64,000 nt of DNA from Escherichia coli (GTDB lineage Bacteria; Pseudomonadota; Gammaproteobacteria; Enterobacterales; Enterobacteriaceae). The notes beneath the pieces were generated by a model, which did not search any database, was not told the origin of the DNA, and worked only from the letters and a program-made list of their open reading frames with translations. Below, piece by piece: positions 26,205 through 33,202 of this stretch. The translations under genes and the position numbers were made by a program. Location: NCBI RefSeq assembly GCF_016903815.1, contig NZ_CP069973.1; one strand, 5' to 3'. Positions within the stretch are counted from its first letter, which is position 1; every line of letters begins with the position of its first letter.

Positions 26205-27300
26205 AGCAACCTCCGTGAAAATGAATAATAATCCGCACATATTGCATGTACAACATGTCGGGCGGATGAGATAAGCGAGTCGACATCTGGCGTTACCGGG
26301 GAATATCAAAAAAATGTCATGGTTATGTGATGATTTAGTCTGGGATTTTACTTCAGAGAAACGGGTGTCTGTTTAGTCAACAAAATAATCACAAACGCAA
26401 CGGATGGGTTCTCGACGTTATTCACGACAGGCTCGCGAGTAATAAAAACCTGATATGCAAAGTCAAACCAATATTCATAATGTCTTTTTATTCACAACAA
26501 TAAATAATTCAATAACAATCATTGAAATGAATGATGGTTTGTATAAGGAATATACGCTACCGCCCCACCCTGAAAACATGAACTGCACATTGCCATCTTA
26601 ACGTCGTTAAACACTGGCTTAATAGTGGGTATTTAAAATTAGGAATTTATTAAATTCACCTGATGAATATCATAAGCAAATAGCATAGAAAATAATGACA
26701 ACTCCCCCGAGGGGACCATTTCCAAAGCACTGCACCACCACCTGGTGCCCGGATGATCTTGCTTCATTGGTAAGAGTACCTGATTCATTGTTTCCAAAAT
26801 GGTGTTTTCCCCGGCCCCTCCAATAATGTGCAGCTCTCACGTGATAATCTATTGATTAGGTTATATTAAGAATCAATATTTGAAATACATCCATTTTCTT
26901 GAATAAATCAACATGTTTATTTATCAATTGCTGTTTTAGCTCTGACTCATCAAGCTCTCCATATTTGTCCTACAGATAATCGCGAATAAATACAGAGAAC
27001 GCCATTTATCCTTTTAGCATACCTGCCGGATATTTTTATTTGTATTAATATTAATTGCATCTCCAACTCCGAGCATATCCATCATTAAAAACATTTTGAG
27101 ATTATAGAATGCCTGTGATAACAACTGAAACATCTGCACAATGTGAATAGTTAGTTTCTTTTCAGAGGAAATGAAATAGACAAGCTGAATGAAAGGGAGA
27201 GTAATATAAATTAAAAAAATAACATGAATCTAATTAATTACGTCCATCATTGTGGATAAAGTTACTGAATAATAAATAACATAATCTTCTGGCATCCCAC

Positions 27301-27918
27301 TCAAATAATTTCATTCCTTTTTAATACTTCTTGTAATTTCGGTAACTGACATACAGCTTCAGCAATCGCACTGATATTCTGCGCATTATCGTGAAACCAT
27401 TCATGCCCCGGCCCCCATGTGCGCATGGTGCAGAGATAACAGTCCACCAGCGTTAGTTGCTCGCCAAAGGCATAAGGTTCAGCGGTCAATTGTGAATTCA
27501 GCCAGATATAAAGCGATTTACGATATTCAATAACATTATTCTTTAACTGTTCGGGTGCGTCAGGAGCCCAACGCTCAGGGTAATCGGCGAAAGTGAATGT
27601 TGGATAGACATTAGCAACCAGCCAGACCAATAGCCGTTGAAACTGCTGACGTTCGGCGCGCCCAACCGGTGGCGCAAGGTCCGGGCGACGATCGAGAACC
27701 ATCAATGCAATCGCCGCTGTCTCCGTCATAATCTCGTCATTTTCCAGCGCCAGTGTCGTAATCTGACACAACGGGTTCAGGGTTTTCAATAACTCGCGTG
27801 AGGTTCCCTCGTGGTCAAAACCACTGACATCAACGAACTGATAAGGAATATCAGCCAGTGTTAGCATCAGCTCACTGATTGTAGAGCCCCATCCGGGTAC
27901 GCCATACACCTTAATCAT
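27301..27918 (-). CDS. yncG: Glutathione S-transferase homologue
   Basis: 205 aa; MIKVYGVPGWGSTISE...; synteny next to ansP. Confidence 0.85.
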   Translation of the reverse strand: MIKVYGVPGWGSTISELMLTLADIPYQFVDVSGFDHEGTSRELLKTLNPLCQITTLALENDEIMTETAAIALMVLDRRPDLAPPVGRAERQQFQRLLVWLVANVYPTFTFADYPERWAPDAPEQLKNNVIEYRKSLYIWLNSQLTAEPYAFGEQLTLVDCYLCTMRTWGPGHEWFHDNAQNISAIAEAVCQLPKLQEVLKRNEII

Positions 27919-28184
27919 ATGCCCCTCACAATCTTTTAAAGATTAAGTGTAGGACAGTACACAGGTTAACCAGCAAAAGGATTTGTCATTTTTTCGTCAG
28001 TTGTATTATTCCCCTTCAGGATTGTAAGGGGATGTTTTGCATCGTTTATCGATAACGGGTAGGATGCTGCGCCGATAGTTTTATACCCATAAAGAATAAT
28101 GGTGATAACTATCATCGCCAGGATGAATAAACATTGTTCATGGCAACTTATATGACTTTTTCATTAAAGCAATCAGGGAGAGCA

Positions 28185-29684
28185 ATGAGTAAACACGACA
28201 CCGACACTTCAGATCAACACGCCGCGAAACGCCGCTGGCTTAATGCCCACGAAGAGGGGTATCACAAAGCGATGGGCAATCGCCAGGTACAGATGATCGC
28301 CATTGGCGGCGCGATTGGTACGGGTTTGTTTTTAGGCGCGGGAGCCCGACTGCAAATGGCGGGTCCAGCACTGGCACTGGTCTATTTAATTTGTGGCTTG
28401 TTTTCGTTTTTTATTCTGCGTGCATTGGGTGAGCTGGTGTTACACCGCCCTTCCAGTGGCAGTTTTGTCTCTTATGCCCGTGAGTTTTTAGGAGAGAAAG
28501 CCGCTTACGTTGCAGGCTGGATGTACTTCATCAACTGGGCGATGACGGGGATTGTCGATATTACCGCCGTTGCACTGTATATGCATTACTGGGGCGCATT
28601 TGGTGGTGTACCGCAGTGGGTCTTTGCGCTCGCTGCACTTACCATCGTTGGCACCATGAATATGATCGGTGTGAAATGGTTTGCGGAGATGGAGTTCTGG
28701 TTTGCGCTTATTAAAGTGCTCGCCATTGTGACCTTTTTGGTCGTGGGTACAGTGTTCCTCGGTAGTGGTCAGCCGCTGGATGGCAACACCACTGGCTTTC
28801 ATTTAATCACCGATAATGGCGGCTTCTTCCCCCACGGTTTGCTGCCTGCGCTGGTGTTGATTCAGGGCGTAGTGTTTGCTTTTGCCTCCATTGAAATGGT
28901 GGGTACAGCTGCCGGAGAATGTAAAGATCCGCAGACCATGGTGCCTAAAGCGATTAACAGTGTGATTTGGCGTATTGGCCTGTTTTACGTCGGCTCCGTG
29001 GTGTTGCTGGTTATGTTATTGCCGTGGAGCGCGTATCAGGCGGGGCAAAGTCCGTTCGTGACGTTTTTCTCTAAACTGGGTGTGCCATATATCGGCAGCA
29101 TTATGAACATTGTGGTGCTGACCGCTGCCCTCTCCAGCCTGAATTCAGGTCTGTACTGCACCGGACGTATTCTGCGCTCAATGGCGATGGGCGGTTCCGC
29201 ACCGAGTTTTATGGCGAAAATGAGTCGTCAGCATGTGCCGTATGCCGGGATTCTGGCGACACTGGTTGTGTATGTCGTCGGCGTATTCCTCAACTATCTG
29301 GTGCCGTCGCGCGTATTTGAGATTGTGTTGAACTTCGCGTCGCTGGGAATCATCGCTTCATGGGCGTTTATCATCGTGTGCCAGATGCGCCTGCGTAAAG
29401 CGATTAAAGAAGGCAAAGCCGCGGATGTCAGTTTTAAACTGCCTGGCGCGCCCTTCACTTCCTGGCTGACATTACTGTTTTTGCTGAGCGTCCTGGTGCT
29501 GATGGCGTTCGATTACCCGAACGGGACTTATACCATCGCGGCGCTGCCGATTATCGGTATTCTGCTGGTTATAGGCTGGTTTGGTGTGCGCAAACGCGTT
29601 GCTGAAATTCACAGCACTGCGCCAGTCGTCGAGGAAGATGAAGAACAACAGGAAATTGTGTTTAAGCCTGAAACGGCGAGTTAA
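28185..29684 (+). CDS. ansP: L-asparagine permease (APC family)
   Basis: Start taken at MSKHDTDTSDQHAAKRRW, internal Met of the track ORF; 499 aa. Confidence 0.9.
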   Translation: MSKHDTDTSDQHAAKRRWLNAHEEGYHKAMGNRQVQMIAIGGAIGTGLFLGAGARLQMAGPALALVYLICGLFSFFILRALGELVLHRPSSGSFVSYAREFLGEKAAYVAGWMYFINWAMTGIVDITAVALYMHYWGAFGGVPQWVFALAALTIVGTMNMIGVKWFAEMEFWFALIKVLAIVTFLVVGTVFLGSGQPLDGNTTGFHLITDNGGFFPHGLLPALVLIQGVVFAFASIEMVGTAAGECKDPQTMVPKAINSVIWRIGLFYVGSVVLLVMLLPWSAYQAGQSPFVTFFSKLGVPYIGSIMNIVVLTAALSSLNSGLYCTGRILRSMAMGGSAPSFMAKMSRQHVPYAGILATLVVYVVGVFLNYLVPSRVFEIVLNFASLGIIASWAFIIVCQMRLRKAIKEGKAADVSFKLPGAPFTSWLTLLFLLSVLVLMAFDYPNGTYTIAALPIIGILLVIGWFGVRKRVAEIHSTAPVVEEDEEQQEIVFKPETAS

Positions 29685-29796
29685 TTGCAAAATTGCCCGG
29701 CTACGTGCCGGGCAAATTCAAATTACTGACGAAGGTGCCGGATACGGCGTGATAAAAGTCAGGCAAGTCTCTCCGTTTTCACCCTCGCCATATCTA

Positions 29797-30858
29797 TTAC
29801 AGCGCAATACGAATCACATCGTCCGGCTGGGTAGCTTCCTGCTGTTTAGTGGATTTTTGTTTCACACTGACATACAGCGTTTTGCCATCGGCAGACAGCG
29901 CCAGGCTGTTCGGATGAGTCGGCGTATCGAACGTTTTCACCACTTTATAGCTTTTCGCGTCAATCACACTGACTTTACCTGCCTGACGATGCGTTACGTA
30001 GGCTTCATTACGCGCCGGGTTAAACAGCACAGCCAGTGATTCCGGTGCCGCAACCTTCGACAGAATATTGCCATTACGGGTATCGACCACTAACACTTCT
30101 GCGGCTTTAGAATCGGTGATAAATGCACGCTGCCTGGCGGTATCAAGGCTAATGTTGATAAAGAAGTGCTCTTTGCCGTCATCCAGCAGCTTTTTACGGC
30201 TGAGGATTTTATTGTCGGCGGTGTCGATGGTAATCAATTCGCCGTCAGCGTTAGTGGTGTAAAGACGTTTGCCTTTGCTATCCAGCGCCAGACCGGTACT
30301 CATTTTACCGGTGTTCTGGATGGCGGTTTTCAGTTTGATATTCTCGCCATCAACGACCCAAATCACGCTCTCTTTACCAATACCACTGATGTAAACGGTG
30401 TTCGTGGCATCATCAGCTACCAGCTCACGCGGTTGCAGCGGGCGCACCTCTTCCGTGCGCTTACGATCATCCAGCACCAGACGGCCTTTCACTTCGCCCG
30501 TTTTGGCATCTATCGCCGTGACCGCGCTGTTTACAGTGTTACCAAACCACAACGTCTGAGTCGTGTTATTGATGGTAGCACCAAACGGCTTGAGATCGTT
30601 ATGGATCGCCTGCGTCACTTCCAGAGTAACCGGATCAAGACGATAAACCACGCCGCCTTTATCCAGTTTGCGGCTTTGCGAAGTGGCGAGCCACAGCGCG
30701 TTTTCTTGCTGGCTATAAGCCATTTCGTAGGCACCTTTACCTACCGCTTTACGCAGCATTTCTTCTGCGGCCTGCGTACTGAATGATGAAGCAACAAGCA
30801 ATGAACCTAACAGTAATGAACCACGCAGGCGCGATGAAAACAGATGACGTAAATGCAT
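29797..30858 (-). CDS. yncE: Periplasmic beta-propeller protein YncE
   Basis: 353 aa; signal peptide; recognised as YncE. Confidence 0.88.
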   Translation of the reverse strand: MHLRHLFSSRLRGSLLLGSLLVASSFSTQAAEEMLRKAVGKGAYEMAYSQQENALWLATSQSRKLDKGGVVYRLDPVTLEVTQAIHNDLKPFGATINNTTQTLWFGNTVNSAVTAIDAKTGEVKGRLVLDDRKRTEEVRPLQPRELVADDATNTVYISGIGKESVIWVVDGENIKLKTAIQNTGKMSTGLALDSKGKRLYTTNADGELITIDTADNKILSRKKLLDDGKEHFFINISLDTARQRAFITDSKAAEVLVVDTRNGNILSKVAAPESLAVLFNPARNEAYVTHRQAGKVSVIDAKSYKVVKTFDTPTHPNSLALSADGKTLYVSVKQKSTKQQEATQPDDVIRIAL

Positions 30859-30942
30859 GACGACTCCCTTTGATGAACCGATATTTTTGCTGCTTCACAA
30901 TGCTTCGCTAAGCGTAATCATCGTTACGCTCTTGTTATAAAT

Positions 30943-30961
30943 GGGAATGGTAATCATTATT
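30943..30961. promoter_or_regulatory. Candidate Fur box in the yncE–yncD divergent region
   Basis: GGGAATGGTAATCATTATT matches the 19-bp Fur consensus GATAATGATAATCATTATC at 15 of 19 positions. Confidence 0.4.
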
Positions 30962-31099
30962 TTCTCAAATGTGGAGCATTTCTTGCCGTTACGACTACAA
31001 TTTTCTCAATTACTTAACGTATCGTGCCGTTTCGTTTTCCATAAATTTACAATTTTATTACCATAGCGGCGTTTTCCCATTCTTAACCTGGCTTTTTTC

Positions 31100-33202
31100 A
31101 TGAAGATTTTTTCCGTCCGACAGACCGTTTTGCCCGCACTGCTTGTCCTTTCCCCTGTTGTTTTTGCCGCTGATGAACAGACCATGATTGTCAGTGCCAC
31201 GCCGCAGGTGGTTTCAGAACTGGATACCCCAGCAGCCGTGAGCGTGGTGAATGGCGAGGAGATGCGTCTGGCAACACCGCGCATTAACTTGTCTGAATCA
31301 CTGACCGGCGTGCCTGGTTTGCAGGTACAAAACCGGCAGAACTATGCGCAAGATTTACAGCTGTCGATTCGCGGATTTGGCTCCCGCTCCACTTACGGAA
31401 TTCGTGGTATTCGCCTGTATGTGGACGGTATTCCCGCCACCATGCCCGACGGACAAGGGCAAACATCCAACATCGATTTAAGCAGTGTACAAAATGTGGA
31501 AGTGCTGCGCGGCCCCTTCTCTGCTCTGTATGGCAACGCGTCTGGCGGTGTAATGAATGTCATCACCCAGACCGGACAACAGCCACCAACCATTGAAGCC
31601 AGTAGTTACTACGGCAGTTTTGGCAGCTGGCGCTATGGGCTGAAAGCAACAGGCGCAATGGGCGACGGCACTCAGCCTGGCGATGTCGATTACACCGTCT
31701 CAACAACGCGCTTTACGACCCACGGCTATCGTGATCATAGTGGCGCACAGAAAAATTTAGCCAATGCCAAACTGGGCGTACGCATTGATGACGCCAGCAA
31801 ATTAAGCCTGATTTTCAATAGTGTGGATATCAAAGCAGATGACCCAGGTGGGCTAACCGAAGCAGAATGGAAGGCGAATCCGCAACAAGCGCCACGCGCT
31901 GAACAGTACGACACGCGAAAAACCATCAAGCAAACTCAGGCTGGGTTGCGCTATGAACGTAGCCTGAGCGCACAAGATGATATGAGTGTGATGATGTATG
32001 CCGGGGAGCGAGAAACGACCCAGTACCAGTCAATCCCGATGGCACCACAACTTAACCCGTCGCATGCGGGCGGCGTGATTACTCTGCAACGCCATTATCA
32101 GGGGATAGACAGCCGCTGGACACACCGTGGCGAGCTGGGCGTTCCGCTCACGTTCACTACCGGCCTGAACTACGAAAACATGAGTGAAAATCGCAAAGGC
32201 TACAATAACTTCCGCCTGAATAGCGGCGTGCCGGAATACGGGCAAAAAGGTGAGTTGCGCCGCGACGAACGCAATCTGATGTGGAACGTCGATCCCTATT
32301 TACAGACGCAGTGGCAGCTGAGCGAAAAACTGTCGCTGGATGCTGGCGTGCGCTACAGCTCCGTGTGGTTTGATTCCAACGACCATTACGTTACTCCGGG
32401 TAACGGCGATGACAGCGGTGATGCCAGTTATCACAAATGGCTACCTGCCGGATCGTTAAAATATGCAATGACCGACGCCTGGAATATCTATCTGGCAGCC
32501 GGGCGTGGTTTTGAAACGCCGACGATTAATGAGCTCTCTTATCGCGCTGATGGGCAAAGCGGTATGAACTTTGGTTTAAAACCATCCACCAACGATACAA
32601 TTGAAATCGGCAGTAAAACGCGTATTGGTGATGGGCTGCTTAGTCTCGCATTGTTTCAGACCGACACTGATGATGAAATTGTTGTCGATAGCAGTAGCGG
32701 TGGGCGTACGACCTACAAAAATGCCGGAAAGACCCGTCGTCAAGGAGCTGAAATGGCATGGGATCAACGTTTCGCGGGAGATTTTCGCGTAAAAGCGTCC
32801 TGGACCTGGCTTGATGCGACCTATCGCAGCAATGTGTGCAATGAACAGGATTGTAACGGTAACCGGATGCCAGGGATCGCCCGTAATATGGGCTTTGCGT
32901 CGATAGGTTATGTACCGGAAGATGGCTGGTATGCAGGCACGGAAGCGCGTTATATGGGTGATATTATGGCAGATGATGAAAATACGGCCAAAGCGCCGTC
33001 TTATACTCTCGTCGGCTTATTCACCGGGTATAAATACAATTACCACAATTTAACTGTGGATTTATTTGGTCGTGTCGATAATTTATTCGATAAAGAATAC
33101 GTTGGTTCTGTCATTGTCAATGAGTCAAACGGGCGATATTACGAACCTGCACCCGGGCGAAATTATGGTGTCGGCATGAATATTGCGTGGCGATTTGAGT
33201 AA
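31100..33202 (+). CDS. yncD: TonB-dependent outer membrane receptor
   Basis: 700 aa; signal peptide; C-terminal ...AWRFE; recognised as YncD. Confidence 0.9.
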   Translation: MKIFSVRQTVLPALLVLSPVVFAADEQTMIVSATPQVVSELDTPAAVSVVNGEEMRLATPRINLSESLTGVPGLQVQNRQNYAQDLQLSIRGFGSRSTYGIRGIRLYVDGIPATMPDGQGQTSNIDLSSVQNVEVLRGPFSALYGNASGGVMNVITQTGQQPPTIEASSYYGSFGSWRYGLKATGAMGDGTQPGDVDYTVSTTRFTTHGYRDHSGAQKNLANAKLGVRIDDASKLSLIFNSVDIKADDPGGLTEAEWKANPQQAPRAEQYDTRKTIKQTQAGLRYERSLSAQDDMSVMMYAGERETTQYQSIPMAPQLNPSHAGGVITLQRHYQGIDSRWTHRGELGVPLTFTTGLNYENMSENRKGYNNFRLNSGVPEYGQKGELRRDERNLMWNVDPYLQTQWQLSEKLSLDAGVRYSSVWFDSNDHYVTPGNGDDSGDASYHKWLPAGSLKYAMTDAWNIYLAAGRGFETPTINELSYRADGQSGMNFGLKPSTNDTIEIGSKTRIGDGLLSLALFQTDTDDEIVVDSSSGGRTTYKNAGKTRRQGAEMAWDQRFAGDFRVKASWTWLDATYRSNVCNEQDCNGNRMPGIARNMGFASIGYVPEDGWYAGTEARYMGDIMADDENTAKAPSYTLVGLFTGYKYNYHNLTVDLFGRVDNLFDKEYVGSVIVNESNGRYYEPAPGRNYGVGMNIAWRFE

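Follow-up and report, generated by a model that had tools for sequence, protein, structure and literature searches.

The 241-bp spacer between the divergently oriented genes yncE and pqqU (formerly yncD) of Escherichia coli contains a 19-nucleotide sequence resembling the binding site of the regulator Fur, raising the questions of whether this sequence functions as a Fur operator and, if so, whether it serves one or both of the genes that flank it. The sequence was analysed within a stretch of 64,000 nucleotides (64 kb; hereafter the window), with gene identities taken from the RefSeq annotation at 100% nucleotide identity. On the minus strand, yncE (29797-30858), which was present in both the open reading frame list and RefSeq, encodes a Sec-exported seven-bladed beta-propeller of 353 amino acids, and on the plus strand pqqU (31100-33202) encodes the TonB-dependent receptor PqqU; RefSeq places at these positions the same yncE and TonB-dependent receptor genes that the original prediction had named as flanking the site. 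The Fur box (30943-30961) is identical in K-12 MG1655, where it occupies NC_000913.3 1523204-1523222, i.e. -103 to -85 from the yncE ATG, and the five differences between the two spacers (alignment 30840-31120) are all located on the pqqU side, near 31023, 31034, 31056 and 31065-31066. The 1-kb stretch around the box is 100% identical to several human clinical isolates, such as strain 7/2, and is present in 5411 of 5426 complete E. coli genomes. The 63-bp promoter/operator segment comprising the box and its flanks was likewise found in 5411/5426 complete genomes, at 100% identity in 3960 records and at least 95% identity in the remainder.

The Fur box, to which no strand was assigned, was delimited by its consensus match, its conservation and the mapping of published Fur ChIP peaks. 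It reads GGGAATGGTAATCATTATT on the plus strand, comprising the hexamers GGGAAT GGTAAT C ATTATT, and AATAATGATTACCATTCCC on the strand of yncE, with the three hexamers agreeing with the GATAAT type at 4/6, 5/6 and 5/6 positions. Compared with the consensus GATAATGATAATCATTATC, 15 of 19 positions match on the plus strand and 14 of 19 on the opposite strand. The count of 15/19 originally reported was reproduced at 30943-30961, and nowhere else in the 64-kb window does a site reach this score. Based on dinucleotide-preserving shuffles, 0.21 sites of this quality are expected by chance per 64 kb across both strands, and 19% of the shuffles contained at least one, such that the consensus match by itself is modestly unusual and suggestive. 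When the 241-bp, 37% GC intergenic spacer was considered alone, 15/19 was attained in 0.16% of 20,000 shuffles (p ~0.0016), making the placement of the match within the spacer clearly unusual and significant, and the spacer contains no other match of at least 14/19. As a positive control, the Fur box at the ryhB promoter, counted in the same way, scored 16/19.

Published in vivo binding data were then mapped onto the box. The Fur ChIP-seq analysis of CFT073 by Banerjee et al. 2020 (PMC7157518) reported a motif-containing peak at 1711868, of height 845, assigned to yncE/yncD_1. In the CFT073 genome the 19-mer is located at 1711864-1711882, and this peak therefore falls inside it. Fur ChIP-exo peaks were reported by Gao et al. 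2023 (PMC10164565) at 1711873-1711885 in CFT073 and at 1524928-1524940 in W3110, the latter overlapping the W3110 copy of the box at 1524918-1524936. The same study recorded peaks upstream of yncE in MG1655, W, 042, BL21, ATCC 8739 and Sakai, with the yncE-upstream peaks recorded in the iron-replete condition ('R') only. In the MG1655 ChIP-exo sheet, the gene labels are off by one row near yncE, and the assignment of the peak needs re-registration. Once re-registered, and given what we take to be the offset between version-2 and version-3 coordinates, the MG1655 peak at 1521238-1521250 (old coordinates) shows the same overlap with the box as the W3110 peak does. Neither this re-registration nor the assumed offset enters into the mappings for CFT073 and W3110. 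No in vitro footprint or point-mutation evidence specific to the yncE Fur box was found in the literature searched.

Expression data for yncE are available from published fur mutants. Across eight strains, yncE was derepressed with log2 fold changes of 3.1-8.1, or approximately 9- to 280-fold (PMC10164565), and in a CFT073 fur mutant it was up 147-fold (PMC7157518). At the protein level, YncE was over-produced in a fur mutant as seen by Western blot (PMC5120174), and yncE expression rose 16-fold under iron limitation (PMC8896160). Both PMC4676285 and PMC7157518 place the gene among the direct targets of Fur, the former (Beauchene et al. 2015) describing it as Fur-bound and RyhB-enhanced, and PMC8896160 and Huja 2014 (PMC4145685) mention that its promoter contains a Fur box. 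Earlier records of the site are attributed by citing papers to McHugh et al. 2003 and Seo et al. 2014. Given the published ChIP data, the fur-mutant expression data and these mentions of a promoter Fur box, the Fur operator of the yncE promoter is an already known and canonical site, identical in locus and sequence to that in the literature. The reading of the 19-mer as a Fur box, as first made from the sequence, is thus borne out by ChIP peaks that map to it and by its being the most conserved element upstream of yncE, and the accompanying proposal of iron regulation agrees with the strong derepression of yncE in fur mutants and its increase under iron limitation. The adjacent TonB-dependent receptor gene, which had been offered as additional support, does not serve as such, as this receptor imports the cofactor PQQ and not iron.

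To place the box in an evolutionary context, one genome per species was scanned, resulting in 80 yncE loci across more than 20 genera of Enterobacteriaceae, including Escherichia, Citrobacter, Salmonella, Enterobacter, Klebsiella, Raoultella, Kluyvera, Leclercia, Lelliottia, Atlantibacter and others. An orthologous box matching the consensus at 13-16 of 19 positions is present approximately 100 nt before the yncE ATG in nearly all 80 loci, and in most of them this box (14-16/19) is also the best Fur-consensus match within 300 nt upstream of yncE. In Kluyvera, Pseudocitrobacter, Trabulsiella and two Raoultella another site scores higher, with the aligned orthologous box still at 13-14/19, and some Enterobacter and Lelliottia genomes contain a second register, offset by 6 nt and matching at 15-16/19, that forms an extended hexamer array. 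When 28 Enterobacteriaceae sequences were aligned over the 135 nt preceding yncE, conservation across 19 columns peaked at the Fur box, to within 2 nt, where mean identity is 0.945 vs 0.675 elsewhere, and the longest invariant run, TAATGATT, lies within the box. Some of the conserved positions are departures from the Fur consensus: position 17 of the box has an invariant C and position 12 a C with 89% conservation, which probably reflects the box doubling as a -10 region.

At most of these loci pqqU is the divergent neighbour of yncE, across a spacer of 241-281 bp. At nine Citrobacter loci (L010, L011, L014, L015, L018, L019, L022, L026 and L079), the 3 kb upstream of yncE contain no pqqU homologue, and all nine still have the Fur box, at -100 to -103, together with the 5' UTR elements. 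As the box is kept at these nine loci without an adjacent pqqU, it travels with yncE.

The position of the box within a short divergent spacer could indicate a shared, bidirectional operator through which Fur directly represses both yncE and pqqU, linking PQQ uptake to iron status. PqqU/YncD takes up the cofactor PQQ with high affinity (bioRxiv 10.1101/2022.06.07.495086; PMC7193533; PMC12124388). Consistent with a shared operator, the box lies within the 241-bp divergent spacer, the divergent yncE-pqqU arrangement is preserved in most Enterobacteriaceae, and pqqU was up in the fur mutants of W3110 (log2 fold change 2.95, p = 2.7e-51) and 042 (2.02), and is counted as a Fur regulon member in both (PMC10164565). 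However, derepression of both flanking genes was not a general outcome in the fur mutants, with pqqU flat in MG1655 (0.12) and W (-0.10) despite the same operator, and where pqqU did respond, its change was 30- to 40-fold smaller than that of yncE in the same strain and may have arisen indirectly. Two papers also report that neither Fur nor iron controls the gene (bioRxiv 10.1101/2022.06.07.495086; PMC7193533), and the box persists where pqqU is absent. Further, a candidate pqqU promoter, TTTCCA-17-TACCAT (31036-31064, plus strand), is conserved; other genera have TTTTCA … TAACAT, and TTACA is invariant between the two elements. These candidate elements lie approximately 75-100 bp from the Fur box, a distance that would probably be too great for occlusion. 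Taken together, direct repression of both genes from the one site appears improbable. As pqqU is little responsive to Fur and the box is kept with yncE where pqqU is not its neighbour, the operator is best described as essentially one-sided, serving yncE, with pqqU not or only weakly under its control.

A graded version, in which Fur exerts a weaker and strain-dependent effect on pqqU through the same operator (8-fold in W3110, 4-fold in 042 and none in MG1655 or W, all with an identical box), is regarded as unlikely. Taken with the conserved pairing of yncE and pqqU, such an effect would, if true, mean that iron starvation adjusts both the scavenging of PQQ and the role of YncE in the periplasm.

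With the operator assigned essentially to yncE, the conserved positions upstream of this gene also suggest how its promoter is arranged. A putative -10 hexamer, TACCAT (30947-30952, minus strand), lies within the Fur box and appears as TACTAT or TATTAT in other genera, with its T, A and final T invariant or nearly so among the 28 sequences. A putative -35 hexamer, TCCACA (30970-30975, minus strand), lies in the block GCTCCACWTT, whose positions are invariant or at least 90% conserved in the same alignment. The spacing from TCCACA to TACYAT is exactly 17 nt in 28/28 sequences, with no indels, and the box would thus span the -10 hexamer plus the 9 spacer nucleotides next to it. The predicted promoter is weak compared with the consensus (4/6 and 4/6), and its score of 8/12 is below the threshold of 9 used in a simple sigma-70 scan, which called no promoter in the yncE direction. 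The only match returned by that scan, TTCACA-16-AATCAT (30894-30921, plus strand), points into the spacer from within the yncE 5' UTR. TATAAC (30934-30939, minus strand) was also considered as the yncE -10 element and rejected, being unconserved between genera and having no -35 element at 16-18 nt, and with a start that would fall within a covarying hairpin.

That the sequence is simply AT-rich promoter DNA (a -10 element and spacer) resembling a Fur site by chance, with Fur control of yncE exerted elsewhere or indirectly, was rejected as very improbable on the basis of conservation and ChIP: a 15/19 match does arise approximately 0.2 times per 64 kb, and the box does overlap a putative -10 element that would be conserved anyway, but most of the invariant TAATGATT belongs to the promoter spacer, whose sequence would be free to vary if only a promoter were present, the ChIP-seq and ChIP-exo peaks, which come from two independent studies, are centred inside the 19-mer or a few bp away, and the intergenic spacer has no second site scoring 14/19 or more.

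Downstream of the box, the yncE 5' UTR contains near its 5' end a stem-loop, AGCGTAAC-GATG-ATTACGCT (30911-30930, minus strand), that covaries strongly between genera. Double-sided changes were observed in 7/7 pairs and 95.7% of cells are paired, a level equalled in 0/500 shuffles and compared with 34-50% in slid controls. The simple scan that called no yncE promoter had reported this segment as a plus-strand terminator; given the covariation and its context, it was reread as a minus-strand 5' UTR stem-loop of yncE. A conserved RNA helix at this position implies that the transcript starts upstream of 30930, probably at the Fur box, and the start implied by the predicted promoter, at approximately 30940, would put the beginning of the stem-loop about 10 nt downstream. 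The stem-loop may act as a 5' stabiliser or form part of a RyhB-responsive structure, and an Rfam search of the spacer returned no family at E <= 1. The yncE Shine-Dalgarno sequence, AAAGGGAG (30864-30871, minus strand), is conserved in nearly all sequences and ends 5 nt before the ATG.

RyhB has been shown to activate yncE post-transcriptionally (PMC4666370; PMC8896160), and a second conserved element of the UTR offers a possible explanation for this. The block CGAAGCAUUGUGAAGCAGC (30889-30907, minus strand) is complementary to the RyhB seed …UUGCUCACAUUGCUUCC…, and its predicted duplex with RyhB nucleotides 34-62 has an energy of -20.0 kcal/mol, compared with -9.4 +/- 2.8 kcal/mol for shuffles, of which 0.1% attain the observed value. 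This complementarity is retained at -18.8 kcal/mol or better in 26/28 orthologous UTRs. Based on duplex energy and conservation, the block is likely to be the RyhB pairing site of yncE. No mapped RyhB pairing site on yncE was found in the literature searched, and CopraRNA ranks yncE poorly as a RyhB target (PMC7154689). A duplex between the whole UTR and full-length RyhB (-40.6 kcal/mol) was attained by 4.8% of shuffles and was set aside as uninformative, with the local block test used instead.

These elements can be combined into a model of yncE control. Under iron-replete conditions, Fe2+-Fur dimers bind the box and would cover the yncE -10 element and 9 nt of the promoter spacer, such that RNA polymerase would be unable to form an open complex and yncE would remain off. 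When iron is scarce, Fur would lose its metal and leave the DNA, allowing yncE transcription to rise approximately 10- to 300-fold, and RyhB, derepressed by the same signal, would pair with the yncE 5' UTR and further increase expression, completing a coherent feed-forward loop. Occlusion is proposed as the mechanism because the -10 element is placed inside the Fur box; the -35/-10 placement, the transcription start and the occlusion of RNA polymerase are all inferred from conservation. Overall, the identity of the 19-mer as the operator through which Fur controls the yncE promoter is highly probable.

The proposed arrangement resembles that of the canonical enterobacterial Fur boxes at ryhB, fhuA, fepA-fes and cirA, sharing with them the palindrome-like 19-bp GATAATGATAATCATTATC architecture of three GATAAT-type hexamers, an overlap with the core promoter (predicted in the case of yncE), Fur occupancy restricted to iron-replete conditions and strong derepression in fur mutants. 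The yncE box scores 15/19 compared with 16/19 for that of ryhB. Unlike the canonical examples, yncE has a product with no demonstrated role in iron uptake, and its box contains several conserved departures from the consensus. The locus also resembles the bidirectional Fur operators of fepA-fes, fepB-entC and fepDGC-entS in having a short divergent spacer with one gene encoding a TonB-dependent outer-membrane receptor; however, yncE alone responds consistently here, and the receptor, a PQQ importer, shows at most a weak response to Fur. As with cirA and shiA, which are controlled by Fur and RyhB in a coherent feed-forward arrangement, Fur represses yncE at the level of transcription and RyhB, itself under Fur repression, activates it post-transcriptionally, with the difference that the RyhB site of yncE is a proposed one, the conserved complementary block described here.

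The place of yncE in the core E. coli Fur regulon is textbook knowledge, and its Fur box has been described more than once. What the present analysis adds is the cross-genus footprint, the registration of the putative -35 and -10 elements and the linkage test in genomes lacking an adjacent pqqU. The locus additionally provides a calibration point, being a true operator that was recognised from sequence alone. YncE is a strongly iron-regulated, immunogenic periplasmic protein that has been proposed as a vaccine antigen, and the anatomy of its promoter, operator and 5' UTR should be useful in the design of reporters and mutants.

Several further observations were made at and around the locus. 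The pqqU matches at one E. albertii locus (L006) and one Trabulsiella locus (L047) are partial only, and pqqU is annotated as frameshifted in CFT073. On the opposite side of yncE, ansP (28134-29684, plus strand) is convergent with it across a 112-bp gap (29685-29796), in which no terminator-like site was detected. In published fur mutants, ansP changed by a log2 fold change of -1.39 in MG1655 and -2.23 in W and was unchanged in W3110; the lower ansP expression may reflect transcriptional interference by derepressed yncE. Across the window, matches to the Fur consensus of at least 14/19 occur at 9 positions vs 1.4 expected by chance, and three matches of 14/19 cluster near yncG and in the yncG-ansP spacer, at 27268-27286, 27522-27540 and 28095-28113. 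With the label shift corrected and the same assumed coordinate offset, a second Fur-associated region in the MG1655 ChIP-exo table (1520944-1520980, old coordinates) would fall in the 5' part of pqqU, at approximately 31209-31245 of the window, where the sole consensus match nearby scores 13/19 (31180-31198). This region is marked in the table as 'intragenic, not in Seo et al.'. The pqqU side of the spacer also contains a marbox-like sequence, ACGGCACGATACGTTAAGT (31012-31030, minus strand). It has one mismatch to what we take to be the marbox consensus, AYnGCACnnWnnRYYAAAY, with 1.5 such matches expected per window by chance. MarA is listed as a RegulonDB regulator of yncE in PMC4145685, and the marbox-like sequence coincides with a spacer block, GGCAC…GTTAA, that is conserved across genera.
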